64,000 nt of DNA from an uncultured Bacilli bacterium (GTDB lineage Bacteria; Bacillota_I; Bacilli_A; RF39; UBA660). This document shows positions 1,836 to 62,345 of the stretch, one piece after another (within the stretch, counting starts at the first letter, position 1; each line of letters begins with the position of its first letter). A program made the position numbers and the translations under genes. The DNA is taken from NCBI GenBank assembly GCA_947632355.1, contig CANROY010000002.1:2673-66672 (forward strand), given 5' to 3'. A model generated the notes under the pieces. It was not told the origin of the DNA. It saw only the letters and a program-made list of their open reading frames with translations, and ran no database searches.

Positions 1836-2591
1836 ATGCTAAATTATGAATTTGTTTTAAAAAAGTTTAATGATTATGTAGAGCAGTTTGATGTGAAAAA
1901 TACACCAATTGCTATGAAACGATCACATAGTATTCATACTGCAGATTTAGCAGGAAAGTTAGCCAAGCGAATGGAATTGGAAGAAGAAAAAATAGAATTT
2001 TGTAAAATTCTTGGTTTACTACATGATATCGGGCGTTTTTCTCAATACGAACAAAAAAAGTCGTTTAGTGATTTAAAAACTAAATTTGATCATGCAAAAT
2101 ATGGCGTAGACTATTTATTTAAAGAAAATCATATTAAAGAGTATGGTATACCTCAAAAGTATTATACTTTAATAGAAAAGGCTATAGAAAACCATAACAA
2201 ATTAAAAATTGATAAGAACTTAACTGAAGAAGAACAGTTTTATGCTCAATTTATTCGTGATGTTGACAAAATTGATATTTTTAGACAAGAAGCAACCTCT
2301 TACGAATGGAAATATACAGAACCGGCAACTAAGAAAGTTTTCCATACATTTTTTAAACATCAGTTAATTGAAGATAAAGAGATTGCAAGTTCAAGTGATG
2401 CAATTTTATTACAACTGGCTTTTGTTTATGATATCAATTTTATAGAGTCAATAGAATTATTAAAAGATACCGATAATTTAGACTTATTCTTAAGTGTAGT
2501 AGAAGTCGATAAAAATTTAGAAGAAGAATTTGAAAGTATTAAAAAAGAATTAGGAATGTTTATAGAAGAAAGGATGAAAGAGTTATGTTAG
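1836..2591 (+). CDS. HD-domain phosphohydrolase
   Basis: HD motif LLHDIGRF; 251 aa; stop overlaps the valS start codon, suggesting translational coupling. Confidence 0.7.
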   Translation: MLNYEFVLKKFNDYVEQFDVKNTPIAMKRSHSIHTADLAGKLAKRMELEEEKIEFCKILGLLHDIGRFSQYEQKKSFSDLKTKFDHAKYGVDYLFKENHIKEYGIPQKYYTLIEKAIENHNKLKIDKNLTEEEQFYAQFIRDVDKIDIFRQEATSYEWKYTEPATKKVFHTFFKHQLIEDKEIASSSDAILLQLAFVYDINFIESIELLKDTDNLDLFLSVVEVDKNLEEEFESIKKELGMFIEERMKELC

Positions 2592-5116
2592 AGAAAAAAT
2601 ACGATCATAAAATAGTAGAAGAAAATAAATATGACTATTGGAAAAGTCATGGGTATTTCAATAGTGGAAACAAACTAAAAACACCCTATACAATTGTTAT
2701 ACCTCCTCCAAATGTTACGGGAAAACTTCATTTAGGACACGCTTGGGATACAACATTACAAGATATTTTGATACGTTATAAAAGAATGCAAGGTTTTGAT
2801 TGTTTATGGCTTCCGGGTATGGACCACGCAGGGATAGCAACACAAGCCAAAGTAGATAAAAAATTAAAAGATATGGGGATTAACCCTAGAGAAATGAAAA
2901 GAGAGGATTGGCTTCAAAAAGCATGGGAATGGAAAGAAGAGTATGCAGCAAGTATCCACGAGCAATGGGCAAGACTTGGGTTATCTCTTGATTACAACAA
3001 GGAACGTTTTACTCTAGATGATGGGTTATCAGCATCCGTTCGAAAAGTATTCGTGGATTTATATAACAAAGGTTTAATTTATCGTGGAGAACGTATTATT
3101 AACTGGGATCCACTTGCCAAAACGGCTTTATCCAAAGAAGAAGTTGTTATGAAAGAGGATAAGGGAGCTTTCTATCACTTAAAATACTTTATTGAAGGAA
3201 GTGATTCGGAATACTTACGTGTTGCAACCACAAGACCGGAAACTTTATTTGGAGATACAGCCGTTGCGGTAAATCCTAGAGATGAACGTTACAAAAAGTA
3301 TATTGGTAAAAATGTAGTTCTTCCAATTGTCAATCGTTTGATTCCCATTATTGGAGATATTCATGCAGATCCGGAATTTGGTACAGGTGTTGTTAAAATT
3401 ACACCAGCCCATGACCCAAATGACTTTGAAGTAGGACTTCGTCATAACTTAGAAAAAATTATTGTCATCAATCCGGATGGAACCATGAACGAGAATGCGG
3501 GTGCCTATAACGGAATGGATCGTTTCGATTGTCGTGAAGCACTTATAAAAGATTTACAAGAACAAGATTTACTCATTGAAATTGAACCTATTACCCATAG
3601 TGTTGGACACTCTGAAAGAACCGATGTCGTTATAGAACCTTATCTTTCCAAACAATGGTTTGTTAAAATGCGTCCGCTTGCAGATAGAGTTTTAGAAAAT
3701 CAAAAGAATAAGGAAACAAAAGTCCATTTTGTTCCATCAAGATATGAAAAGATTATGAACCATTGGATGGAAATTACGTACGATTGGTGTATCTCAAGAC
3801 AATTATGGTGGGGGCATCAAATACCGGCTTGGTATAAGGGAGATGAAATCTACGTTGGAATGGAAGCACCTAAAGAAGAAGGTTGGGTACAAGATCCGGA
3901 TGTTTTAGATACTTGGTTTAGTAGTGCTCTATGGCCATTTAGTACGCTTGGTTGGCCAGAAATGACCGAAGACTTCATGCGTTACTATCCAACGGATTGT
4001 TTGGTAACGGGCTATGACATCATTCCATTTTGGGTAAATCGTATGACCTTCCAAGGTTTAGAATTTACAGGACAAAGACCATTTAAAGATTGCTTAATTC
4101 ACGGACTTATTCGTGATAAATTAGGTCGTAAATTCTCTAAATCGTTAGGAAATGGCGTTGACCCTATGGATATGTGTGAAATCTATGGCGCCGATACCCT
4201 AAGATTTTATCTTTCAACGACAGCAAGTAATGGAACGGATATCCGTTTTGATGAAGATAAAATGAAATCCACTTGGAACTTTATCAATAAATTATGGAAT
4301 GCCTCTCGTTTTGTCCTTATGAATATTGAGGATTTAACGGAAGAAAACTATACGTTAGAAAACTTAAAAAAGGAAGACAAATGGATTTTATCAAAACTCA
4401 ATAAAACGATTAAAGAAGTTACCAAGTTTATGGATAAATATGAATTTAATAACGCTGGTGCTTCTATCTATGACTTTATATGGAATACGTTCTGTGATAA
4501 ATACATTGAAGTTTCAAAATTTAGTTTAAATGATGCTACAACGAAATCTGTATTACTAGAAGTATTATCCTCTATTTTAAAAATGCTTCATCCATTTATG
4601 CCTTATGTAACAGATGAAATCTATAATTTACTTCCAATTAAAGAAGAAAATATTATGATTAGTACGTATCCAGTTTATAAAAAAGAATGGGTTTACAAAA
4701 CAGAGGAAGAAGAAATAGAAGATACTTTCTTATTTATTAAAAACTATCGTAATACCAAAGCCGAAAATACTATTACGAATGATTTTAAGATTCAATTTAT
4801 GAATAAGGAAGATTATTCCTTGATTATAAAAATGTTAAAGTTAGAAGGACACATCATAGAAGAAAGAATAGATCTTCCTACCTATGTTGTAAAAGCCAAC
4901 AAGTTTGAAGCGACCATTTATTTTGAAAAAGTTCTAACGGAAGAAGAACAAGAAAATATAAAAAAAGAAATAGAAAAATTACAAGCGAGTATTGAACGAA
5001 GAAAAAAACTTTTAGCCAATGAAAACTATGTAGCAAAGGCTCCAAAAGAATTGGTAGAAGAAGAAAGACAAAAATTAAAACTAGAGGAAGAACGTTTAGA
5101 AACACTTCAAAAATAA
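2585..5116 (+). CDS. valS: valyl-tRNA synthetase
   Basis: Class I aaRS HIGH-region PPNVTGKLHLGHAW and KMSKS-variant KFSKSLGN; 843 aa with a C-terminal coiled coil typical of ValRS. Confidence 0.95.
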   Translation: MLEKKYDHKIVEENKYDYWKSHGYFNSGNKLKTPYTIVIPPPNVTGKLHLGHAWDTTLQDILIRYKRMQGFDCLWLPGMDHAGIATQAKVDKKLKDMGINPREMKREDWLQKAWEWKEEYAASIHEQWARLGLSLDYNKERFTLDDGLSASVRKVFVDLYNKGLIYRGERIINWDPLAKTALSKEEVVMKEDKGAFYHLKYFIEGSDSEYLRVATTRPETLFGDTAVAVNPRDERYKKYIGKNVVLPIVNRLIPIIGDIHADPEFGTGVVKITPAHDPNDFEVGLRHNLEKIIVINPDGTMNENAGAYNGMDRFDCREALIKDLQEQDLLIEIEPITHSVGHSERTDVVIEPYLSKQWFVKMRPLADRVLENQKNKETKVHFVPSRYEKIMNHWMEITYDWCISRQLWWGHQIPAWYKGDEIYVGMEAPKEEGWVQDPDVLDTWFSSALWPFSTLGWPEMTEDFMRYYPTDCLVTGYDIIPFWVNRMTFQGLEFTGQRPFKDCLIHGLIRDKLGRKFSKSLGNGVDPMDMCEIYGADTLRFYLSTTASNGTDIRFDEDKMKSTWNFINKLWNASRFVLMNIEDLTEENYTLENLKKEDKWILSKLNKTIKEVTKFMDKYEFNNAGASIYDFIWNTFCDKYIEVSKFSLNDATTKSVLLEVLSSILKMLHPFMPYVTDEIYNLLPIKEENIMISTYPVYKKEWVYKTEEEEIEDTFLFIKNYRNTKAENTITNDFKIQFMNKEDYSLIIKMLKLEGHIIEERIDLPTYVVKANKFEATIYFEKVLTEEEQENIKKEIEKLQASIERRKKLLANENYVAKAPKELVEEERQKLKLEEERLETLQK

Positions 5117-11384: not shown

Positions 11385-13178
11385 ATGCCAAAAAAACGTA
11401 AAGATTACTCTGATGAGATGAAATGGAATGTAAAAGATTTATTTGCAATAGAAGAAGATTTTGAAAACGAATTCAAAGCCTTAGAGCAAGAATTACCTAA
11501 GTATAAAAAATACCAAGGTCATATCTTAGAGAATGCTAACAATTTGTATGAGGTATTAACACTCGATATGGACGTTAGCAAGCGTTTAGAAAGACTTTAT
11601 ATTTATGGACATATTCAAAATGACCAAGATACTACGGATACACATTATCAAACCCTTTATGGTCGTGTAGCAAAATTAAATGAAAAATATGTTTCTGCTG
11701 TGTCTTTTATTACGCCAGAAATCTTAAAACAAGAGTATTCTCTTATTGAAAAATATATAGAAGAAAATCCCAAATTAAAAGAGTATGAAAGATTGTTAAA
11801 AGAAATTTTCAAATTGAAAGAGCATACTTTAGGAGACAAAGAAGAACAAATTCTATCCGATTTATCTGCAAGTTTTAGTACACCGGATGATGTGTATTCT
11901 GTCCTATCCGATGCGGATTTAAAATTTGGATTTATTAAAGATGAAAATGGAAAAAAAGAAGAATTAACTGAAAAAAGTTATCGTAAATTTATTGAATCTC
12001 CAAATCGTTCTGTTCGAAAACGTGCTTTTCAACAATTATATAAAACGTATGGTGATTTTAAAAATACCTATGCTTCCTTATTAATGAGTGAAGTAAAAAA
12101 TAATAATAAAATTGCAAGTGTACGTGGGTATGAAAGTGCCTTAAACGCTTCTTTATATAGAAGAGATATTCCCGAAGAAATTTATACGAATTTAATTACA
12201 ACGGTGAAAAAAAATATAGCGCCTTTATCTAAGTTTTGGAAATTAAAAAAACAAGCCCTACATTTAAATTCTTTCCATATTTATGATACGTTTGCTCCGA
12301 TTACCAAAGAAGTACAAAAAAAGTATACGATAGAAGATGCAAAAGATTTATTATTAAAAAGTTTATCCGTTCTAGGACCTACTTATATTGAAGATTTAAA
12401 AAAATCTTTTGAAGAGGGATGGATTGATTTTCCACCAAATGATGGAAAAAGAAATGGAGCGTATTGTACTGCCTGCTATAGTGTGCACCCTTATGTTTTA
12501 TTAAGCTTTGATGGCTCTTTAAATAATGTTTCTACTCTTGCTCATGAACTTGGGCATGCTATGCACTATTATTACGCTTGTAAAAATCAAAAGTATCAAG
12601 ACTATGCTTATTCTATCTTTGTTGCTGAAGTTGCAAGTCAAGTCAATCAAATTTTATTAAGTAAATATTTAATTGCAAATACAACGGATAAAGAGATGAA
12701 AAAGTATTTAATTGATGATTTAATTCAAGATTTTAAAGCAACCATTTATCGTCAAACGATGTTTGCGGAATTTGAACGCACCATTCATGAAAAAGACCAA
12801 GAAGGAACTGTTTTAACACATGAAGAATTAAGTACTCTTTATTATCAGTTAAATAAAGAATATTTTGGTAAAAATATTGTCATTGATGATGTGATTCGTT
12901 ATGAATGGGCGAGAATTCCTCATTTCTATATGAATTTTTATGTTTATCAATATGCAACTGCTTATGCAGCAGCGATAAAAATTGCTATGGATATTTTAAA
13001 TCAAAAAGAAAATGCCGTTACGAATTATTTAGAATTTTTAAAACTAGGATGTACAAAAACTCCAATTGAATCCTTAAAAGTAGCAGGAGTTGATATGTCC
13101 AAACCACAAACTTTGAATGAGGCATTTACTTATTTTGATGATTTAATTCAAGAATTAACAAAACTATATCAAGATTAG
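11385..13178 (+). CDS. pepF: oligoendopeptidase F (M3B family)
   Basis: Zinc motif HELGHAMH; 597 aa; unusually placed between dnaK and dnaJ. Confidence 0.85.
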
Positions 13179-14406: not shown

Positions 14407-15051
14407 ATGCATATGCGATACAATGTAGTAAAAGGGGCTAGAGAAATTTTAGCAGATAGTTCCTATGTTATACAAAATCCTGAAAAATATAAAAATAATT
14501 GGTCTAGTGTTTTTGGAAACAATAATCCTATTTGTTTAGAACTTGGTATGGGAAGAGGAATCTTTATAATCGAAATGGCAAAAATGTACCCCAATAAAAA
14601 TTTTATTGGTTTAGAATTAGATCCTTCTCAAACCGCAACAGCTATTAAAAACATTGGAACCAAAAAACTGAATAATTTAAAAATTATTTGTAGTGATGCA
14701 AATAACATCGTAGAGTATTTTGGTAAAGAAATTGATACCATTTATTTAACGTTTTCAGAACCATGGCCGAAAAAGCAAGATGAAAAGAAGCGATTTACCT
14801 CTCTAAACTACTTAAAACTCTATGATCGTATTTTTAGAAAAAATAAGCACATTATATTAAAAACAGATAATAAAATACTTTTTGCAAGTTCTCTTGAAAA
14901 TTTAAGTGAGTTTTGGTATACTTTTGATAAGGTAAGTTTAGACTTACATCATGATGAGCGAAATATACCCAATATTATGACCGATTTTGAAGTACAATAT
15001 TATAAAGAGCATCGACCTATTTACTATGTTGATGCTAAATATAAAGATTAG
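14407..15051 (+). CDS. trmB: tRNA (guanine46-N7)-methyltransferase
   Basis: SAM-binding ELGMGRG and the TrmB FSEPWPKK motif; alternative start ATG 14413. Confidence 0.8.
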   Translation: MHMRYNVVKGAREILADSSYVIQNPEKYKNNWSSVFGNNNPICLELGMGRGIFIIEMAKMYPNKNFIGLELDPSQTATAIKNIGTKKLNNLKIICSDANNIVEYFGKEIDTIYLTFSEPWPKKQDEKKRFTSLNYLKLYDRIFRKNKHIILKTDNKILFASSLENLSEFWYTFDKVSLDLHHDERNIPNIMTDFEVQYYKEHRPIYYVDAKYKD

Positions 15052-15054
15052 GAT

Positions 15055-15633
15055 GTGGAAAATATGAATTATGAAAATCGTGAAGAATTGAACGCATTTA
15101 TAGAATGCAATAAAAAATTAAATGCTAAGAAATATGAGATTATCAAAGGACAATATCGTTTAAAATCTAAAGAAGATTATGAAGAACTTAAAAATTCTAT
15201 TTTAACTTTAAATCAAGAATATACATCTTTTGAAAATGCAAATCCAAATCTCCATGCGAATCTTGGCAAACATGATAGTAAACTATTTGGTAGTACTATG
15301 GCTTCTATTTTTGAAAACTTAGATGTTATATATAATGGTAGATGGGAAGAAGCTGATTTTGATAAAATTAAAAAGGCAATTCGTACGATTACAGTTTATC
15401 AAGAATTGGAATATCAATTAAGCATTATGCACCATTCTTCCTATGAAAAAGAAGAAGACGCTCCTATACATTTAGATGCCAATGGTAATATGGTTGCTAT
15501 TTCTGATCAAATAAAACATCAATTTGATTTTATAGTAGAGCAACAAAAGAAATTACAACCAAAATATGAAGAAGCACATGAATTTCTATTTGAAACAAGA
15601 ATAGAAGAGAATACAAGTACCAAAACCATGTAA
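15055..15633 (+). CDS. hypothetical protein
   Basis: 192-aa ORF; followed by a terminator. Confidence 0.5.
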   Translation: MENMNYENREELNAFIECNKKLNAKKYEIIKGQYRLKSKEDYEELKNSILTLNQEYTSFENANPNLHANLGKHDSKLFGSTMASIFENLDVIYNGRWEEADFDKIKKAIRTITVYQELEYQLSIMHHSSYEKEEDAPIHLDANGNMVAISDQIKHQFDFIVEQQKKLQPKYEEAHEFLFETRIEENTSTKTM

Positions 15634-15655
15634 ACTAGAAAAATCTAGTTTTTTC
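15633..15655 (+). terminator. intrinsic terminator
   Basis: AACTAGA-AAAA-TCTAGTT hairpin followed by TTTTTT. Confidence 0.6.
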
Positions 15656-15708
15656 TTTGCTTTTTTAAATTTTTGTGGTAAATTAGTAAAGCAAAAGAAG
15701 GTATATAT

Positions 15709-27247: not shown

Positions 27248-27277
27248 TTGACATTTATGTTAAGGGAGGGGTATAAT
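27248..27277 (+). promoter_or_regulatory. sigma-A-type promoter of the lipoprotein gene
   Basis: -35 TTGACA 27248-27253, 18-nt spacer, -10 TATAAT 27272-27277. Confidence 0.5.
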
Positions 27278-27302
27278 TGGGTTAGAAAAGAGGAAAAGAA
27301 GA

Positions 27303-28322
27303 ATGAAAAAGAAAATGCATCATTTATTATTAATGGGAATAATGGTATTGGGTTTAACTGGTTGTGGAAAAATAGAATTAAAAAATGATTGGGCCAAAAA
27401 ATATGAAGAATTTTTAAAAGCTGAAATTATTGACCAAGATATAGAAAAGGGCTTACATTCCTTTTTATACAAATATGAAAGCTATGCTATTTCTTTTATT
27501 CAATTAGATGATTTTAAGAACCCTGTTCTTATCATAAAAAACGAAAATAGATTAGAAAGTACGGAAAACGATTCTTGTGTCTATAATATGGCTTACTATT
27601 ATATAGATAACGATAATAAAGTAAATTCCCAAGCAACTTGTAGTGACAAAACCGAATTAAAACTATTGTATGATATAGAAGACAATACGTATAAATATGC
27701 CTTATATTATATAGATGAGGATTCAGAAGAACCTGTTTCTTTACTCTTTATAAGTGATAATAAAGAAAGTGAAGAAGATGTTGATTTAGAGAAATATAAT
27801 AATGAAGAATATAGTGAAAAATTTATAGAAATGGATTTACAATTAGAAGAACAATCTTTTAATAATAAAATAACAGAAAAAGAGTTATTAAAAACAGTAC
27901 AAAATTTAACAGAAACGAAACCAATGAATACCGTAACAGAAGAAAGTAAAACGGAAATTCAAAACAAGTTGGATGAAAAGAAAAAGGCTGAAGAAGAACA
28001 AAAACAAAAAGAGGAAGAAGAAAAACGAAATAAAGGAATTCAAGCTGGAAAGTATACATTAAAATATGGTCGATATAAAAATAGTTTTGTTGATATTACT
28101 TTAAATACAGATAATACTTGTAGTTTTAAAGATACTGATTATAAGATAGATACGACAAATTGTACGTTTGAAATAAAAAAATATTCTGGTATGGAATTTG
28201 GAGAATATGTCTCAGGTTATCATATTATTTTCCATCTAAAAGGACAAAGTGATAAGTATTTTTCCGTTGTTAAAAATAATAGTTTTGCTGATACGAGATC
28301 GGATGTAACGTATCAAGGATAG
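27303..28322 (+). CDS. lipoprotein with an acidic/K-rich coiled-coil linker, adjacent to the Tad locus
   Basis: Signal peptide plus lipobox MGIMVLGLTGCGK; 339 aa. Confidence 0.65.
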   Translation: MKKKMHHLLLMGIMVLGLTGCGKIELKNDWAKKYEEFLKAEIIDQDIEKGLHSFLYKYESYAISFIQLDDFKNPVLIIKNENRLESTENDSCVYNMAYYYIDNDNKVNSQATCSDKTELKLLYDIEDNTYKYALYYIDEDSEEPVSLLFISDNKESEEDVDLEKYNNEEYSEKFIEMDLQLEEQSFNNKITEKELLKTVQNLTETKPMNTVTEESKTEIQNKLDEKKKAEEEQKQKEEEEKRNKGIQAGKYTLKYGRYKNSFVDITLNTDNTCSFKDTDYKIDTTNCTFEIKKYSGMEFGEYVSGYHIIFHLKGQSDKYFSVVKNNSFADTRSDVTYQG

Positions 28323-28338
28323 TAAAAGTATCGTGGTA

Positions 28339-28373
28339 AGGATTGATTTTACATCAGTCCTTTTTGTTTTTTT
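28339..28373 (+). terminator. intrinsic terminator
   Basis: AGGATTGAT-loop-ATCAGTCCT hairpin followed by a long T-run. Confidence 0.55.
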
Positions 28374-28385
28374 CAACGATTTTAC

Positions 28386-28414
28386 TTGCATTTTTTAGTA
28401 ATTATGCCTATAAT
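28386..28414 (+). promoter_or_regulatory. sigma-A-type promoter of the sigma factor gene
   Basis: -35 TTGCAT 28386-28391, 17-nt spacer, -10 TATAAT 28409-28414; RBS GAGGGGA. Confidence 0.55.
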
Positions 28415-28437
28415 AAATCCTCGAGCGAGGGGATACT

Positions 28438-30570
28438 ATGTTAAGTGAGGAACAACTAAAATATAAAAATAAATATAAATTTGCAAATATACCTGATGCT
28501 TTATTTGTAACCCTTTTTAATAAAGCCAAAGAATCCGAAAATTTTCAAACAACATTACAACAATATATCTATAATTACTTACATGAAAATATGAATCTTG
28601 AGGTTATGCAAAATTATATTGATCATATGAATATCAATCCAAAATTAAACAGTCAAACCTTAATAGAAAAGATAAGTTCTTTTTTTGCGTTTTTAAGAAA
28701 ATTAGATTATACATTAACCGATGCAGAAGTACAAGGTTTATTAGAACTAGATATCTTTCAAAAAATTTTAGATAGCTTTGTTAAAAATACAAAAAATATA
28801 ACAGAAAAAAATCTAGAAAATATTCATCATAATGATCAAAATTTTAAGCGTATTTGTGATCTTTACGCGGAAGAAAATTCCTTATTTGAACCAAATGAAG
28901 AAGCCCTAAAAGAAATTGAAGAAGAGGAAGAAGACTTAAATAACGAATTTGAACAAATGGAAAAGGAATATGAGAATAGTAGTAGTTTAGATCCAGTTCA
29001 TTTATATATAAAAGATATTATCCAATATCCAGTCCTTACAGCGGAAGAAGAAATAGAGCTTAGTAAGCGTATAGAAGCCGGAGATGAAACGGCCAAAAAT
29101 ATTTTAGCAAAATCCAACTTACGTTTAGTGGTAAATGTTGCAAAACGTTATGTAGGAAGAGGCTTTTCATTCTTAGATTTAATTCAAGAAGGAAATCTTG
29201 GCCTTATGAAAGCCGTCGATAAATTTGATTATAAGATGGGATTTAAATTTAGTAGTTATGCTCCTTGGTGGATTCGTCAAACCATTACGCGTGCTTTAGC
29301 AAATCAAACAAGAACAATATATATTCCCGTTTATCTAGTGGAAAGAAGAAACAAAATTAATAGAGCATATAAAAAAATATGGACAGAATCTGGAAAAGAA
29401 CCAACAATAAAAGAATTGGCAGAGTATTTAAATATGTCTGAAAAGGAAGTACAATATTGTTTAGAGAATAGTCAAGATTTGATTTCATTAGAAACACCGA
29501 TTGGTGAAGATGAAGATTTTGTACTTTCCGATTATATTGCAGATGATAAATTTATAACTCCCGAAGAAAATGCTCAAAATAAGGATTTAAGAGCTATTTT
29601 TGAAAATATATTTTCAACTTTACCTGAAAGAGAAGTTTTAATTTTAAAATTACGTTTTGGGTGGGATGATGGAGAGACAAAAACATTAGAAGAAGTTAGT
29701 AAAAATTTCAATGTTACTCGTGAAAGAATACGCCAACTTGAAGCAAAAGTCTTACGTAAAATAGGGCAACCTAACTATAGATATTTATTTGAAGATTATT
29801 ATCATGAAACAAGTAAAGAAAATGATTTAATGGTTCAACAAATGATGAAACCAACAAGTACTTTTAATTCTTCGCTTGCAGCAAATACAATAAAAAATCG
29901 TTTATTTGAAGTTCAAAGAAGATACCCAAATATTTCTTTTGGTAAATGGATTGATTTAATAGAAAAACTTTCCTATCGCCAAAAAAGTGCACTTTATTTA
30001 TGCTATGGGTACCAATTAAATGAATATAATTTTAAAACCGTTGCTAAAAGTACGCCCAATTTTTATCAAATGCATAAAAGTGCATTAACAAATTTGATTC
30101 GTTTAGCAAATAATTATCAAAATTCTTTAAATAAAAATCAAGTAGTATTAAAGAAACAAGAATACCTTGTTCTTAAATTATATTATAGTACGGATAAAAA
30201 TCAAGATGTAGTGATAAAAAAACTTGCCCAAAAACTAAATATTTCGGAAAATGAAGTAGAAATAATAAGAAAAAGTGCTTTAAAGAAATTAAATAAAGAT
30301 TTATCCATTTGGTTTCAATGGGACTCTGACGTTCAAAGCTTATTAACAATTATGAATAAAGTAAAATTAAATTTAATACAAGCAAAACTTTATAAAGTTT
30401 TGCATTCTAAATATCAAGATAGTATTTCGGATGCTGCTTTAGTAAATTTAATTCAAGAAATAGTCGTTGATCCATCAATAACACTAGAAAAGTATTTAGA
30501 AACAGTTGAAAATCAAATCAGACAAACAAACCTAAATGTAGAGAAAAAAATACTTTTAAAAAATGAATAA
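28438..30570 (+). CDS. sigA: sigma-70 family (RpoD/SigA-like) RNA polymerase sigma factor with a long N-terminus and an unusual C-terminal extension of about 260 aa
   Basis: Region 1.2 DPVHLYIKDIIQYPVLTAEEEIELSKRIEAGDE; region 2 NLRLVVNVAKRY, LIQEGNLGLMKAVDKFD, YAPWWIRQTITRAL; region 4.2 VTRERIRQLEAKVLRKI; 710 aa in total. Confidence 0.85.
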   Translation: MLSEEQLKYKNKYKFANIPDALFVTLFNKAKESENFQTTLQQYIYNYLHENMNLEVMQNYIDHMNINPKLNSQTLIEKISSFFAFLRKLDYTLTDAEVQGLLELDIFQKILDSFVKNTKNITEKNLENIHHNDQNFKRICDLYAEENSLFEPNEEALKEIEEEEEDLNNEFEQMEKEYENSSSLDPVHLYIKDIIQYPVLTAEEEIELSKRIEAGDETAKNILAKSNLRLVVNVAKRYVGRGFSFLDLIQEGNLGLMKAVDKFDYKMGFKFSSYAPWWIRQTITRALANQTRTIYIPVYLVERRNKINRAYKKIWTESGKEPTIKELAEYLNMSEKEVQYCLENSQDLISLETPIGEDEDFVLSDYIADDKFITPEENAQNKDLRAIFENIFSTLPEREVLILKLRFGWDDGETKTLEEVSKNFNVTRERIRQLEAKVLRKIGQPNYRYLFEDYYHETSKENDLMVQQMMKPTSTFNSSLAANTIKNRLFEVQRRYPNISFGKWIDLIEKLSYRQKSALYLCYGYQLNEYNFKTVAKSTPNFYQMHKSALTNLIRLANNYQNSLNKNQVVLKKQEYLVLKLYYSTDKNQDVVIKKLAQKLNISENEVEIIRKSALKKLNKDLSIWFQWDSDVQSLLTIMNKVKLNLIQAKLYKVLHSKYQDSISDAALVNLIQEIVVDPSITLEKYLETVENQIRQTNLNVEKKILLKNE

Positions 30571-30597
30571 GGCTTACATTTTTGTAGGCTTTTTTTC
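30571..30597 (+). terminator. intrinsic terminator
   Basis: GGCTTACA-TTTT-TGTAGGCT hairpin (with G-U pairs) followed by TTTTTTT. Confidence 0.55.
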
Positions 30598-30643
30598 TTG
30601 TTTGTAGTACGCTTGTATGCTAAAATATTTTTAGGTGGTTAGA

Positions 30644-57524: not shown

Positions 57525-57552
57525 AGATAAATCAAAATAATGGTTTATCTTT
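57525..57552 (+). repeat. 28-nt hairpin repeat, copy 2
   Basis: Exact copy of 55339-55366, directly upstream of the next CDS. Confidence 0.7.
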
Positions 57553-57578
57553 TTCTTTTATGGTATACTAGAGTAGTG

Positions 57579-58457
57579 ATGAATATGAATAAGATAAAAA
57601 GAATGTTTAAACAAATGATTGATTTTTTTAAAGGAATACGTATAAGTACTATTTATAAATTAGTTGGACTTGCTCTTTTATTTGCCATTCTATTTTGGGT
57701 TTATACGACTTGGAAAAGTAATCAAGCCCTTACCAAAAAAATGGAATCTGATACCTATATAAATGGTAAAGTAACCAATAAGGGAGAAGATTATATCATT
57801 GTGGAAGATGAAAATCAAAATGAATATAAAATACCAAGTACGGAAGATGTTCCTATTGGTAGTGATGTGAATGCTAAAGTAGAAGAAGTTATAGAACCTA
57901 CTGAAGAAGAAAAGAAGGAAGAAACTCCGAAAACCGTTACCAGTAGTGGTGTTACCGTTACAAACGAGAAAAAGGAAAATAAGAATGCCGATGCCGAAGT
58001 GATTGCTTATTTTAATGAAACAGAAAGTGATATGGAGAATCCTAGTTTAAAAGAAGAAGTAAAGGCTCGTTTTATTACGGTAGTTGATTTTCTATTCTAT
58101 GATGGAACCATAAAAGGGTATACCTTAAATGATTTATCTTCGAAAGCTAAATTACAAATTTTAAAAATAGCTTTAGCAATCGATTCCAAAATAGAAAATT
58201 ATATTCCGGGTTATAAAGAAACAATTACTTCAACAACGGGAAAGATTTATACCGGTTTAAAATCAAAAATTATTGAAAGTTATTTAAAGATTACGACGAA
58301 AATTTGTAATTATGATGCAGACACTTGCGACCAAGCCAAAAAAGATTTTCAAGATATGAAAAAATCATTTTCGATTACTTGGAATTTAATCAAAGACTTA
58401 GTTTCCAGTGGAGCAGAAAATTTAAAAGAATGGTATGAGATTTTTAGTGGAAAATAA
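57579..58457 (+). CDS. single-pass membrane protein with an acidic/K-rich linker and a C-terminal domain with a conserved Cys pair
   Basis: TM LVGLALLFAILFWVYTTW; start uncertain (in-frame ATGs at 57540, 57579, 57585). Confidence 0.5.
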   Translation: MNMNKIKRMFKQMIDFFKGIRISTIYKLVGLALLFAILFWVYTTWKSNQALTKKMESDTYINGKVTNKGEDYIIVEDENQNEYKIPSTEDVPIGSDVNAKVEEVIEPTEEEKKEETPKTVTSSGVTVTNEKKENKNADAEVIAYFNETESDMENPSLKEEVKARFITVVDFLFYDGTIKGYTLNDLSSKAKLQILKIALAIDSKIENYIPGYKETITSTTGKIYTGLKSKIIESYLKITTKICNYDADTCDQAKKDFQDMKKSFSITWNLIKDLVSSGAENLKEWYEIFSGK

Positions 58458-58504
58458 AATAAATTTATGGTATAGTTAAAGAGAATAATAAAGAGGTGCT
58501 AAAT

Positions 58505-60325
58505 ATGTTTGGAAAAATAAAATACATTGGTGAAAGTATTGCTACAGTAGAAAACGAGGGTGGAGATGCTGGAACAACCGATTTAATGAATATAAATGTT
58601 ATTTTTGAAGCTCCTGATCAAAGAATTTTAGGAGAAGTAACAGAATTTAATAAAGACGAAATAAAAATACGTTTTCTAGGGGAATATTTAAATGGTCATT
58701 ATGTCAATGGTGTTATTAGAAAACCTCTTTTATCAAGTAAAATTCGTATTATCAATAACGAAGAATTAATGGAACTTGTTGGTCGTGAAAGCGACAAATC
58801 TTTTGTTTTAGGAAATAGTGCTATTTATAAAAACTATAAGGTTTGTCCGAATATCAATGATTTATTATCCAATCATTTAGGAATATTTGGAAATACCGGT
58901 AGTGGTAAATCTTGTGGTGTTGCTAGAATCGTTCAAAATTTATTTTCCAATCCAAATATGCTTTCTTATAATGCCAATATCTTTGTATTTGATGCTTATG
59001 GTGAATATAAAAATGCGTTTGGAAGTATCAATAAAATTAATCCAAATTATAGTTATAAGTTTATTACCACAAATCCAATCGATAGTGATGACTTTTTATT
59101 ACAAATACCGGTTAATTTACTAAATTTAGATGATTTTGCACTACTTTTACAAGCCACCAATCATAGTCAATTACCAATTATTGAAAGAACCATAAGACTT
59201 GCAAAAATCTTTAGTCAAGATAGTGAAGAATCAAATAAATATAAGAATCATTTAATTGCCAAAGCCTTACTTGCCATTCTATTTAGTAACCAAACAACAG
59301 CTAGAAAGAAAAATGAAGTCTTCCAAATTATTGAAGTTTGTCATACTAATGAATTTAATTTTGATAGTACCATTAATGGTTTAGGGTATACAAGAACTTT
59401 CAGTGAATGCTTTGAAATCGATTCAAATGGTTATTTTGGTGAAAGTGTTTTAATTACCGAATATATTTTAAAACATATCGAAGATTCTTATGAAGAAATG
59501 GAAGAACCAAAGGAATACAACTATTCTCTTGCAGATTTTGCCAAGGCTCTAGAATTTACAATGATTAGTGAAGGTTTCCAAAACAATGCTAATTTATATG
59601 ATGATGCCGTTATCTTAAAAGTAAGATTAAATACAATCTTAAATACAAAAGTAGGAAAATATTTTTCCAACAATGGGTATATCTCTATTGATAAGTTTGT
59701 TAGTAGTTTGGTGGTTAAAAATAATCGTAAAGCCCAAATCATTAATATTAATCTAGAAGATGTCGATGATACGTATGCAAAAGTAATTGTTAAAATTATG
59801 GCTCGTTTATTCTTTGAATTTTCTAAAAACTTAAAACAAAGAGCAAGTATTCCTTTCCATATCTTCTTAGAAGAAGCACATCGTTATATTCAAAGGGATA
59901 ATGATAATTACTTACTTGGTTATAATATCTTTGAACGTATTGCTAAAGAAGGAAGAAAATATGGTGTTTTACTAGGGATTATTAGTCAAAGACCAGTTGA
60001 AATCTCTGATACGGTTATTTCTCAAGTTTCTAACTTCTTAATCTTCAAAATGACACACCCTAAAGATATTAAATACATTGAAGAAATGCTACCAAATATC
60101 TCTGCAGATGTTATTGAAAAGCAAAAAACATTACAACCAGGTAGTTGTGTTGGATTTGGTTCTGCCTTTAAAATACCAATGATTATGCGTCTTGAACTAC
60201 CGAATCCACTTCCATATAGTTCCAACTGTGATGTATCAAGTAGATGGAATGTAAAAGCCCAAGCAACAAGTCCAAGTACCCAAAGTACATCAAGTACTAT
60301 AAATGGAGAAGTAAGCAACGGATAA
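58505..60325 (+). CDS. HerA/FtsK-superfamily ATPase (DUF87-like) with an N-terminal HAS-barrel
   Basis: Walker A GIFGNTGSGKSCGV, Walker B HIFLEEAHRYI, C-terminal LGIISQRPVEISDTVISQVSNFLIFKM (HerA-type sensor region); S/T-rich tail; ATG 58505 after GAGG (alternative GTG 58496). Confidence 0.75.
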   Translation: MFGKIKYIGESIATVENEGGDAGTTDLMNINVIFEAPDQRILGEVTEFNKDEIKIRFLGEYLNGHYVNGVIRKPLLSSKIRIINNEELMELVGRESDKSFVLGNSAIYKNYKVCPNINDLLSNHLGIFGNTGSGKSCGVARIVQNLFSNPNMLSYNANIFVFDAYGEYKNAFGSINKINPNYSYKFITTNPIDSDDFLLQIPVNLLNLDDFALLLQATNHSQLPIIERTIRLAKIFSQDSEESNKYKNHLIAKALLAILFSNQTTARKKNEVFQIIEVCHTNEFNFDSTINGLGYTRTFSECFEIDSNGYFGESVLITEYILKHIEDSYEEMEEPKEYNYSLADFAKALEFTMISEGFQNNANLYDDAVILKVRLNTILNTKVGKYFSNNGYISIDKFVSSLVVKNNRKAQIININLEDVDDTYAKVIVKIMARLFFEFSKNLKQRASIPFHIFLEEAHRYIQRDNDNYLLGYNIFERIAKEGRKYGVLLGIISQRPVEISDTVISQVSNFLIFKMTHPKDIKYIEEMLPNISADVIEKQKTLQPGSCVGFGSAFKIPMIMRLELPNPLPYSSNCDVSSRWNVKAQATSPSTQSTSSTINGEVSNG

Positions 60326-60392
60326 GTTGCTTTTTCATTGACTTAAAATAGGATTATTTATATAATAATATTACTTAGAAAGGAAAAAAATT
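60322..60392 (+). repeat. upstream region, copy A, of the duplicated membrane-protein genes (contains a promoter)
   Basis: ATAAGTTGCTTTTTCATTGACTT...; -35 TTGACT 60338-60343, 17-nt spacer, -10 TATAAT 60361-60366; copy B at 61266-61309 lacks the -10 segment. Confidence 0.6.
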
Positions 60393-61226
60393 ATGGATAC
60401 TTTAAGGGAAAAGAAAATACAAAAATTGCAAGAAAAGATAAATAAATATGATACTATTTTAGCAAATAGAGAGTTGTTAGAAAAAGAAACAAATAAGGAT
60501 TATAAAAAGAAAAAAAGAAAAATGGTGATGCTTTCCGTATTTTATGCTGGATTTATAATTGCCTTGGAAAAATTTTTTGGTTTTGGATTTCCATTTGTTC
60601 AAGAACAAATAAAAGCGTATAAAAGCATTCAAACTACAATAGATGAAAATGGAAATAAAGTTTGTGAAAACATTGAATATAATTGTTTAGATTATGGTGA
60701 ATTAAGTTCTGTTGTGACATCACTAGGAAGTTATTTATATTATTATTCCAATTGGAACTTAACATCATCAGGTGAATATATCCGTTATATCGAAAAATAC
60801 AATCTAAAGGATATGAGTCTAGAAGAAGTATCAAATTTATTGATACAGCCTGAAAAAGATTTAAGTTATATAAAAGATAGTTTAGAAATAATTAAACAAA
60901 CAGAAGATTCTAAACAAGATATAAATGAATTACCACATTATGAGGCCGTATATAATGAACTAGATAAACAAGACTATATATTTGTTCGCGAATCAGAAGT
61001 ATTAAATAAATGTTCAACAGCACTATTTGGATTATTCTTTGTTGTAAGCAATGTTCTTCTTTTAGCAGCAGACCCTTATGACTTAAAAGGATATAAGAAA
61101 AATTTCAATCAAAAAGTAGAGAAAAAAGAAGAGGAATATAGAAAAAAAGCACAATTAGAATTAAGAAGAATTTTAGTCAAAAAAAGAAAAATTGGTAATA
61201 ATATAGAGGATGATGAAAATAAATAG
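60393..61226 (+). CDS. coiled-coil membrane protein (paralog A; two predicted TM segments)
   Basis: N-terminus MDTLREKKIQKLQEKINKYDTILANRELLEKE; TM MVMLSVFYAGFIIAL and a C-terminal TM; 277 aa. Confidence 0.55.
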   Translation: MDTLREKKIQKLQEKINKYDTILANRELLEKETNKDYKKKKRKMVMLSVFYAGFIIALEKFFGFGFPFVQEQIKAYKSIQTTIDENGNKVCENIEYNCLDYGELSSVVTSLGSYLYYYSNWNLTSSGEYIRYIEKYNLKDMSLEEVSNLLIQPEKDLSYIKDSLEIIKQTEDSKQDINELPHYEAVYNELDKQDYIFVRESEVLNKCSTALFGLFFVVSNVLLLAADPYDLKGYKKNFNQKVEKKEEEYRKKAQLELRRILVKKRKIGNNIEDDENK

Positions 61227-61265
61227 TTTATGATACTTTAAAAGAAAAGAAATTAGAAAAATTAT

Positions 61266-61309
61266 ATAAGTTGCTTTTTCATTTGACTTAAATAGAAAGG
61301 AAAAAATTT
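61266..61309 (+). repeat. upstream region, copy B (ATAAGTTGCTTTTTCATTTGACTT...), with about 30 bp including the -10 element deleted relative to copy A
   Basis: Direct comparison with 60322-60392. Confidence 0.6.
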
Positions 61310-62101
61310 ATGAATACTTTATATGAAAAGAAAATACAAAAATTGCAAGAAAAGATAAATAAATATGATACTATTTTAGCAAATAGAGAGTTGTTAGAAA
61401 AAGAAGCGAATAAAGATTATAAAAAAATAAAAAGAAAAATGGTAATTGCTACTACAGCACTTGTGGGTGGTTTTACAGCAGGGCCAAAATTGTTAGGTTT
61501 TGGTTTTCCAATTGTAAAAGATCAAGTCAAAAAATATCAAGATATAAAAACAACGATAGATCAAGATGGAAACGTAACAGAAGAAAAAATAGGATATATT
61601 TATAAAGAGGATATGGAACCTAATACTTTATATAATTACTCTGATTGGACTTCAACACTATCTGAAGAATCTATTCGTTATGTAGAAAAATACGATTTAG
61701 AAGATATCAATATAGATGAAATGCTTACTATTTTAAAGCAAGGGAACTTTGATTTTAATTCTATAGGAACTGAACTAGAAATTAGTAAACAAACAGCATC
61801 TTCAGAAGAAGAATTAATGGAATTACCTAAATATGAAGCCGTATATAACGAATTAGATATGCAAGACTTTATCTATGAATACGAAACGAATGCTAACAAT
61901 ATTGTAACAACTATAACAAGTTTACTTGGTTTTACTTATTTTGATGTGACTATCATAGGAATATGTGCATTATCATTAAATAATCATAAAAAATATTTTG
62001 AATCAAAAATATGTGAAAAAAAAGAAAAATGTAAAGACAAAAAAGAACAATATGTAAGGAAGTTGCAAAAATTAAATCAAAATATAAAAAATGAAAAATA
62101 A
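61310..62101 (+). CDS. coiled-coil membrane protein (paralog B)
   Basis: First roughly 45 codons nearly identical in DNA to paralog A (MNTLYEKKIQKLQEKINKYDTILANRELLEKE), then divergent; 263 aa. Confidence 0.55.
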   Translation: MNTLYEKKIQKLQEKINKYDTILANRELLEKEANKDYKKIKRKMVIATTALVGGFTAGPKLLGFGFPIVKDQVKKYQDIKTTIDQDGNVTEEKIGYIYKEDMEPNTLYNYSDWTSTLSEESIRYVEKYDLEDINIDEMLTILKQGNFDFNSIGTELEISKQTASSEEELMELPKYEAVYNELDMQDFIYEYETNANNIVTTITSLLGFTYFDVTIIGICALSLNNHKKYFESKICEKKEKCKDKKEQYVRKLQKLNQNIKNEK

Positions 62102-62149: not shown

Positions 62150-62345
62150 TGATACAATGTAAGTACCTGAAGGAATAGTTTGTTTCACATAAAACCGACT
62201 ATTGGATATTATTGGGAATCTAATTGAGTGTGGTGTAGAAGACTAGCCCATTAAGTGTTGCTAGGATCCTAAAGCATTTCATGTGATGCCCACCTCGCGT
62301 GAGCGGGCTTTTATCCAAACAGACTTTCCTTTGGGTTTTTATATG
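62150..62345 (+). other. GC-rich, probably structured, non-coding element (candidate leader or small RNA) upstream of tcdA
   Basis: About 45-50% GC in a roughly 30% GC genome; complementary segments AGCCC...GGGCT around GCCCACCTCGCGTGAGCGGGC; followed by CCAAA...TTTGG plus a T-run and the tcdA RBS; no ORF. Confidence 0.35.

Follow-up and report, generated by a model that had tools for sequence, protein, structure and literature searches.

An RpoD-like sigma factor with a region 4-like C-terminal extension and its previously undescribed, modular family in uncultured gut bacteria

The sigma gene considered here lies on the forward strand at 28438..30570 of a 64-kb stretch of contig CANROY010000002.1 (assembly GCA_947632355.1, an uncultured Bacilli bacterium), which is referred to below as the window. 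It comprises 710 codons and a stop in a single open frame, and an identical 710-aa sigma protein is on record in NCBI. The gene order is Tad locus, a gene for a 339-aa lipoprotein-like protein, the sigma gene, and ruvAB, in agreement with the original prediction (a model's reading of the DNA without database searches), which had placed the gene between the Tad locus and ruvAB; the one lipoprotein-like gene intervenes on the Tad side. The prediction also had the gene unlinked to dnaG, and within the window this is so, as neither dnaG nor a second sigma gene is present. A terminator-like hairpin with a 10-pair stem and a T-run follows the lipoprotein-like gene (28338..28372, + strand) and divides the sigma gene from the upstream unit. 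A putative sigmaA-type promoter (28386..28414, + strand) can be read from the sequence, with TTGCAT at 28386-28391, a 17-nt spacer, and a perfect TATAAT at 28409-28414; the consensus scan omitted it because only 3/6 positions of the −35 hexamer match. The ribosome-binding site GAGGGG (28427..28432, + strand), likewise read from the sequence, stands 5 nt before the ATG, and a second terminator-like hairpin with a T-run (30569..30602, + strand) overlaps the sigma stop codon ahead of ruvA (30635). Promoter and terminator assignments are consensus matches, in a genome that is very AT-rich (GC ~29%).

Residues 185-455 (28990..29802, + strand) form a sigma-70 core in which Pfam recognizes region 1.2 at 185-217 (51.8 bits), region 2 at 223-293 (74.4 bits), region 3 at 302-378 (80.3 bits), and region 4 at 393-442 (80.4 bits). 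Each score is above its cut-off, which assigns the protein to the sigma-70 family and bears out the RpoD-like layout first proposed, with regions 1.2-4.2 at about residues 185-450 of 710. In an alignment with RpoD, the residues that read the −10 and −35 elements are primary-type and canonical (WWIRQTITR and VTRERIRQLEAKVLRK, respectively), and the core is 56-58% identical to Lachnospiraceae RpoD. Ordinary RpoDs stop at about residue 455 in this alignment, leaving the query 255 aa longer, close to the ~260-aa C-terminal extension originally described. The best NCBIfam matches of the query are RpoD equivalogs, albeit below their cut-offs, with 372 bits against 572 for PRK09210 and 314.8 bits against 354 for TIGR02393 (RpoD_Cterm). 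A control RpoD (protein P0031) scores 572.7 and 401.5 bits with these models, while the orthologues at loci L045 and L010 pass RpoD_Cterm only (369 and 382 bits against 354). In a word-index search with the full protein, ordinary RpoD cores dominated the output; the five best-scoring RpoD matches (P0001-P0005) rank high because their sigma core is internally duplicated, and they are probably chimeric metagenome assemblies.

In place of sigma region 1.1, residues 1-150 (28438..28887, + strand) form a family-specific N-terminal domain (profile score 238 bits) that is 30-35% identical to the corresponding parts of P0135 and two genes at L004. The first 184 residues contain no Pfam match to region 1.1 (PF03979), and the alignment of residues ~120-155 with RpoD region 1.1 is a loose one. 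An acidic linker with a net charge of −13 (residues 151-184; 28888..28989, + strand) separates this domain from the core.

The extension begins with a linker of no detectable homology (residues 456-489; 29803..29904, + strand) and continues with a 67-aa repeat unit at residues 490-556 (29905..30105, + strand; RYPNISFGKWIDLIEKLSYRQKSALYLCYGYQLNEYN...), which is recognized by a repeat profile and is a degenerate derivative of sigma domain 4 (sigma4). The segment LSYRQKSALYLCYGYQLNEY... falls inside this unit, which matches the tandem repeats of other sigma proteins with an E-value of 1.6e-9 in an exhaustive phmmer search of 1.84 billion proteins and is placed by the iterated repeat profile at 494-554 (47.9 bits, E 3e-16). 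When the extension is scanned alone, a partial r4_2 match appears at residues 505-526. A second region 4, designated r4′, occupies residues 571-618 (30148..30291, + strand) and shows a layout resembling a helix-turn-helix (HTH) with an acidic "recognition" helix, ISENEVEIIRK. In the same scan, r4′ (QEYLVLKLYY...ALKKLNK) matches Sigma70_r4 at 32.8 bits (E 4.9e-8; gathering score 24.1), and the query's own region 4 finds it by self-comparison (E 1e-5). The motif SIWFQWDSD follows at residues 623-631 (30304..30330, + strand) and has counterparts after r4′ in orthologues too (SIWYEWNND, KIWLDWNDD, TCWYDWN), the order of r4′ and then SIWxxW(N/D) being kept in L045, L010, and L009. The last 68 residues (643-710; 30364..30567, + strand) constitute half of a tail domain (tail profile 61.6 bits, E 3e-18), covering the first ~55 residues of a ~125-aa family tail at 35-38% identity, and the protein ends there.

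The original prediction had counted two to three region 4-like or LuxR-type HTH segments after region 4.2. The two segments it quoted are similar to region 4 beyond chance and correspond to the unit and r4′; no third sigma4-like segment was found in the extension, the last 68 residues being the half tail domain. The LuxR identity is not supported, as GerE (PF00196) reaches only 17.0-18.4 bits against a cut-off of 23.5 and the same stretch scores higher as Sigma70_r4. The tail domain has no meaningful match among PDB sequences, and a single-sequence model of residues 476-710 is poor (predicted local distance difference test, pLDDT, 57.8), with an uninformative fold search.

The architecture of the query recurs in longer form elsewhere. 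Exhaustive phmmer with the extension against the 1.84 billion representatives returned three proteins, P0135, P0136, and P0137, each matched in several stretches; all belong to the sigma-70 family, are 842-1285 aa long, and carry C-terminal tandem arrays of a 60-75-aa unit. By the iterated profile, P0135 has eight units, P0136 seven, and P0137 five, compared with one in the query. P0135 also shares the N-terminal domain and core of the query (35% identity over 440 residues). Further members are encoded at L004, L009, L010, L015, L037-L039, and L045, and the number of units in relatives ranges from 0 to 12. The unit cassette is attached to three types of core, namely, RpoD-like, group-3-like (P0137), and extracytoplasmic function (ECF)-like (P0136), and the ~125-aa tail ends all members except P0136, with only its first half in the query. 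As a definition of the family, we propose at least one unit matching the unit profile together with the family tail, C-terminal to a sigma-70 core; the query carries one unit and the first half of the tail in this arrangement, as well as the family N-terminal domain, at the scores given above. Word-index searches with the extension alone or with the unit alignment returned nothing and also missed the known members, which probably reflects limits of the index, and a genome scan with extension peptides found no relative. In the literature searched, there is no sigma factor with region 4 repeat arrays and no description of any RF39 sigma factor. To the extent of that literature, this sigma family with sigma4-derived units and a tail, in uncultured gut bacteria, is previously undescribed.

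Several members have features of their own. P0135 (L001 3568-7425), 1285 aa long, combines the N-terminal domain with eight units and a complete tail; its gene lies in a cell-division and cell-wall cluster (ftsW, murG, murB, divIB) with a transposase 2 kb upstream. In P0136 (L002 429-2957), an ECF-like core carries seven units of highly regular form, and the gene lies among spore-former neighbors (YunB, YutD, and YutH-like); therefore the unit cassette also occurs outside the tad-ruvA clade. At L004, the gene next to the sigma array, on its ruvA side, encodes a stand-alone 327-aa protein consisting of only two tandem tail domains (14679-15662). This protein is a possible partner for the tails of the sigma factors, and its existence suggests that the tail mediates association with a like partner. 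In an alignment of the L004 tails (A7), the second tail half (QYPNISxExIDxAIEE...YTGERSFEEEL) aligns with the start of the repeat unit, and the tail may be derived partly from a unit.

With a rough probability of 0.55, we read the query as a primary-like (group-2-like) sigma that is accessory, carries an appendage for protein interaction or regulation, and belongs to a lineage-specific and fast-diversifying family in gut Bacilli/"Tenericutes". The core (residues 185-455) would bind core RNA polymerase and, given the canonical reading residues in regions 2.4 and 4.2, is predicted to read ordinary −35/−10 promoters. The 255-aa extension would have arisen via serial duplication of the protein's own domain 4, with one copy (r4′) still region 4-like, the other (the unit) retaining a degenerate sigma4 fold, and a truncated family tail at the end. 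It is most likely a protein-interaction or regulatory appendage rather than an extra promoter-reading module, because both copies keep the scaffold of domain 4 and have lost its base-contacting residues. Such an appendage could dock partners that normally recognize sigma4; alternatively, it could fold back on the sigma factor or the polymerase and tune activity. It is from the comparisons below that we infer the promoter specificity, the accessory status, and any partner binding of the query.

The genomic site bears on accessory status. Fifty syntenic loci were retrieved with the upstream TadC-like protein as the anchor, and the module profiles were run on all of them. These loci come from GTDB species representatives, all gut metagenome-assembled genomes (MAGs) labelled uncultured Tenericutes, Bacilli, or "Candidatus Ventrenecus" and probably of the order RF39, and all relatives discussed are MAGs. 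Complete tadC-ruvA intervals (n = 17) contain one to five family genes in 8/17 cases and none in 9/17. Among those without a sigma gene, L013, L032, and L033 have a tadC-ruvA gap of 58-104 bp that is intergenic only; L014, L023, L029, L041, and L043 hold pilin-like and other genes (L014 also an open reading frame, ORF, resembling EF-P); and L036 has a single unidentified 314-aa ORF. Where family genes are present, their number and size vary widely: L008 has one gene without units (a 595-aa stop-to-stop frame, 570 aa from the first Met); L009, L010, L045, and L039 have one long gene each (970-1451 aa, 1-9 units); L038 has two (424 aa with 1 unit and 1407 aa with 9 units); L015 has a gene with 12 units that is split by an in-frame stop; and L004 (= L055, assembly GCA_964430695.1) has a tandem array of 4-5 sigma genes followed by the double-tail protein. 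In the window itself, the interval holds the lipoprotein-like gene and then the sigma gene. This presence/absence pattern among relatives suggests that the sigma factor of the site is dispensable. The extension is likewise not uniform across the clade, at odds with the possibility that SigA orthologues throughout it share one extension lacking HTH similarity.

In-frame TAA codons interrupt two of the family genes, at L004 11667-11669 (after WWIR in region 2.4) and at L015 5664-5666 (between the N-terminal domain and the core); these could be pseudogenes, split genes, or errors. In L014, L023, L029, L041, and L043, which are more distantly related, the interval contains additional genes with prepilin-type N-termini (MNKKGxTLVEVIISVGLI...) and a gene for a large membrane-anchored protein, apparently further pilus components.

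The chief rival holds that the query is the sole housekeeping sigma factor (SigA/RpoD) of its lineage, located away from dnaG, having gained appendages at both termini and evolving fast through a reduced-genome lifestyle or surface selection. We consider this unlikely, although it has definite points in its favor. The query has the full region 1.2-4.2 architecture of RpoD with RpoD equivalogs as its best NCBIfam matches, the −10/−35 reading residues are canonical not only in the query but also in L045, L008, L009, and L010, the L045 and L010 proteins exceed the RpoD_Cterm cut-off, each of the six closest genomes has one such sigma gene at the tadC-ruvA site, and the window contains no other sigma gene. 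A housekeeping sigma would, however, be expected to be slow and present in every close relative, and at the syntenic site it is absent from L013, L032, and L033; of these, L033 is as near to the window as gene-bearing relatives (RuvA 85%, RuvB 88% identity). The query also falls below both RpoD cut-offs.

Divergence also weighs against this rival. Between the window and L008, L010, and L045, RuvB is 88-90% identical, RuvA 82-84%, and TadC 64-66%, whereas the sigma core is 51-52% and the N-terminal domain 28-32% identical; RuvA, RuvB, and even the membrane protein TadC all diverge far more slowly than the query core. Among L045, L008, L009, and L010, RuvB identity is 91-94% and that of the sigma cores only 60-68%, and these cores are as distant from one another as they are from a Lachnospiraceae RpoD (65-66%), to which the query is 56% identical. 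Across genomes with RuvB at 88-94%, the sigma cores are thus 50-68% identical, which to our knowledge is unheard of for a primary sigma factor. Core values of ~0.4 for the ratio of nonsynonymous to synonymous substitution rates (dN/dS) in paralogue pairs also tell against a housekeeping role. The L004 genes, P0135, and L037 have altered reading residues, unlike the query and its nearer orthologues. The four to five tandem paralogues at L004 include none with a canonical region 4.2, and therefore the primary sigma factor of that genome is presumably encoded elsewhere; the L037-L039 cores are only 34-41% identical to the query. Judged by sequence, the L004 and L037-L039 sigmas cannot be primary. 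Together with the empty loci, they lead to the parsimonious view that the primary sigma factor lies elsewhere and that the site hosts accessory primary-like paralogues. The query is, then, probably an accessory sigma rather than the sole housekeeping one, a view for which its own promoter-like site and flanking terminators have also been counted. The original prediction had left open a divergent housekeeping or a specialized sigma, and the latter appears favored by the 0-5 copies, patchy distribution, fast divergence, and sub-cut-off RpoD scores.

Set against RpoD/SigA (group 1; PRK09210, TIGR02393), the query shares regions 1.2, 2, 3, and 4 in order, with the core identity to Lachnospiraceae RpoD noted above, and the canonical −10 (WWIRQxITR) and −35 (VTRERIRQxEAKxLRK) readers. 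It differs in lying below both curated cut-offs, in having a 150-aa family domain where region 1.1 is undetected, in its 255-aa C-terminal extension, and in not being beside dnaG; its family is present or absent from genome to genome, multi-copy, and evolving several times faster than RuvB. Group 2 comprises primary-like, non-essential sigma factors such as cyanobacterial SigB-E, Streptomyces HrdA/C/D, and mycobacterial SigB. The query resembles these in its RpoD-like core of regions 1.2-4.2 and its primary-type reading residues and in being apparently extra, dispensable, and patchy among relatives. We know of no C-terminal extension or sigma4 repeats in known group 2 sigmas.

The reading of the extension as an appendage of domain 4 origin draws on profiles and models. 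In a profile-profile comparison (hhalign), 21 units align with true sigma4 at a probability of 82% (E 1e-5), colinear across 54 columns, and the only Pfam families matched by more than one unit are Sigma70_r4 and r4_2. A MAFFT alignment places the r4′ copies and the units in register, with a gap of ~6 residues in the units after a conserved Gly in the HTH region. The AlphaFold2 model of the unit, made with an input alignment of the 21 units only and no true sigma4 sequences, is a compact helical domain with a pLDDT of 88.7. Its Foldseek neighbors in the PDB, among the best 50 listed, are nearly all sigma domain 4, with template modeling (TM) scores of 0.53-0.61, root-mean-square deviations (rmsd) of 2.7-3.0 Å, and identities of 22-25%; against PDB sequences, the unit profile gives marginal matches only, sigma factors among them. 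As modeled, the unit is a degenerate sigma domain 4 that retains the sigma4 fold with a short HTH deletion.

The positions of region 4.2 that contact the −35 bases (R-E-R-x-R-Q) distinguish the copies from a functional domain 4. In the r4′ copies they are neutral or acidic (E-N-E-x-E-I in the query), and in 70 units they are gaps or a conserved Tyr-Tyr, while the sigma4 scaffold positions are retained. By this alignment, the unit and r4′ have lost the DNA-reading residues of sigma4. Selection nevertheless acts on these segments. In pairs of L004 paralogues, dN/dS is 0.32-0.37 for units plus tail and 0.39-0.42 for the core, estimates that rest on two pairs with a fairly high synonymous rate (dS 0.43-0.82). 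The values for units and tail are close to that for the core, and therefore the extension is as constrained as the core; it is under purifying selection.

An improbable alternative, close to the additional DNA-binding modules first envisaged, is that the sigma4-like segments are HTH units that read a second upstream element or AT-rich upstream DNA and so extend promoter specificity. The significant Pfam match and HTH layout of r4′, the net charge of +6 on both the query unit and r4′, and a genome of ~29% GC, in which added specificity could help, are compatible with it. The replacement of the base contacts in r4′ and the units nevertheless speaks against such modules, as does the ~6-residue deletion from the HTH region of the units. 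Net charge across the family runs from −5 to +6 for units, with no basic bias, compared with +2 to +8 for true sigma4; GerE/LuxR scores remain below cut-off; and a range of 0-12 units among close relatives is hard to square with a fixed promoter architecture.

For an accessory sigma with a regulatory appendage, two analogies from known systems are informative. In ECF41, ECF42, ECF56 (SnoaL-like or TPR), and OrbS, C-terminal extensions after region 4 modulate the sigma factor in cis (PMC7730460, PMC9023288). The closest functional analogy to the query is this use of a post-region 4 appendage instead of a separate anti-sigma factor. The extended ECF sigmas differ in having a sigma2-sigma4 core with SnoaL, TPR, or Cys-rich extensions, whereas in the query the core is RpoD-like and includes regions 1.2 and 3, and the extension appears to consist of duplicated sigma4 and a novel tail; no Pfam extension domain is shared, and the two-domain core and SnoaL/TPR module of that class are not found in the query. 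Structurally, the closest analogy is with sigma4 in its role as a surface to which regulators and phage proteins bind. The modeled unit superposes on sigma4 in complexes with gp67 (4g6d), WhiB (6onu, 7kug, 8cyf), PhoB and the flap tip (3t72), and RsdA (SigD4, 3vep), at TM 0.44-0.58 and an rmsd of ~3 Å. In contrast to these structures, the units are extra copies outside the polymerase-bound sigma4, are without DNA-reading residues, and have their own RYPxxS N-terminal helix and Tyr-rich last helix.

From such structures one can also construct a bolder proposal, in which the array is an in-cis decoy whose sigma4-shaped units soak up host regulators or phage anti-sigmas resembling AsiA or gp67 and thereby leave the functional domain 4 unoccupied. 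We regard this as a long shot, and no less so its extension to the locus, whereby tadC-ruvA would be an arms-race site supplying a phage-resistant stand-in for the primary sigma. The sigma4 surface is a known target, because structures of sigma4 with phage G1 gp67 and WhiB-type regulators are among the structural neighbors of the unit, and the units present a sigma4 fold without DNA-reading residues. The proposal would explain constant promoter-reading residues amid fast, star-like divergence, the range of 0-12 units, the fusion of the cassette to three sigma classes, and the stand-alone tail proteins; presence/absence, 0-5 copies, and in-frame stops are likewise hallmarks of conflict genes. 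It is opposed by a dN/dS of 0.3-0.4 that indicates relaxed purifying rather than positive selection at the resolution tested and by the single unit of the query. PADLOC and PHROGs recognize the sigma core only, and tblastn found no homologue of the modules in 50,697 phage genomes, so that defense-system and phage-origin readings were set aside. The anti-phage protein MzaA (MZA; NF041931, PDLC02203) was a specific candidate, being likewise a long sigma-70 protein with non-sigma parts, which the query matches at 290 bits (NCBIfam) and 186 bits (PADLOC). The match covers the sigma core only (model ~360-720) against a cut-off of 800 bits, however, and the extra part of MzaA is N-terminal and unrelated. 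No MZA partner genes lie near the query, whose neighbors are tad genes, the lipoprotein gene, and ruvAB, and the identity was rejected.

It is highly improbable that a frameshift or assembly error joined a separate downstream ORF to the core and so created the extension artificially, or that the extension is a functionless, decaying pseudogene tail, since despite the MAG source of the contig, the halved tail, the in-frame stops in some family genes, and the evident chimeras P0001-P0005 among database RpoDs, the frame is continuous with a terminator right after the stop, the same fused order recurs in single ORFs of independent MAGs (L009, L010, L045, and P0135; 970-1365 aa), the modules match family profiles strongly, and units and tail are under purifying selection in paralogues.

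The reading of the query as an accessory sigma with a non-DNA-reading appendage has its own counterweights. The −10/−35 reading residues of the query are those of a primary sigma, and the L045 and L010 proteins pass RpoD_Cterm and are ~65% identical to a Clostridia RpoD, as might be expected if they were true primary sigmas in a divergent lineage; a canonical rpoD elsewhere in the query genome is something that we infer. For the 67-aa unit, no single Foldseek E-value is strong (all are at least 1.2), and the argument for a sigma4 fold is made from the consistency of the matches, not from single E-values. The charge of +6 on the unit and on r4′ means that these segments may bind nucleic acid non-specifically. 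Because the query holds only one unit and half a tail, its extension may also be the decaying remnant of a longer array.

The rest of the window contains several other features. At 27248-28322, a perfect TTGACA-18-TATAAT promoter match precedes the 339-aa lipoprotein-like gene, for which there is no Pfam match and no counterpart in the tadC-ruvA interval of any relative. A T-box leader (1604-1817; 145.8 bits) is followed by genes for an HD-domain protein and a class I aminoacyl-tRNA synthetase (1836-5116). Inserted between dnaK and dnaJ is a gene for an oligopeptidase F-like M3 peptidase (11385-13178). A short ENA contig from the same organism (L006 2858-4010) has this gene called in two parts, one of 47 aa and one longer, pointing to either strain variation or an error. 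At 57540-62101, a HerA-like ATPase (DUF87, 609 aa) is flanked by three Pfam-less ORFs, and the region may be a defense or mobile module. At 62161-62341, a 6S RNA gene scoring 49.6 bits, barely past the gathering threshold, has Pfam-less ORFs on one side and a ThiF-family gene on the other.

Few bacterial proteins have been studied as well as sigma factors, and the primary-like ones are taken to evolve slowly and to follow a fixed domain plan ending at region 4.2. The family described here departs from that plan in three ways: domain 4 appears to have multiplied to give arrays in which as many as a dozen copies have lost their DNA-reading role, the cassette is joined to three sigma classes, and the genes turn over in the manner of conflict genes while their promoter-reading residues remain intact. 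The query, with one unit, one r4′, and half a tail, is a modest member, and the family it revealed is the interesting part. Were the protein the only primary sigma of its lineage, its rate of change would in itself be striking. An appendage that did regulate or protect the sigma factor would represent a new form of in-cis control of transcription initiation and would offer a handle on gene regulation and phage-host conflict in abundant uncultured gut bacteria.

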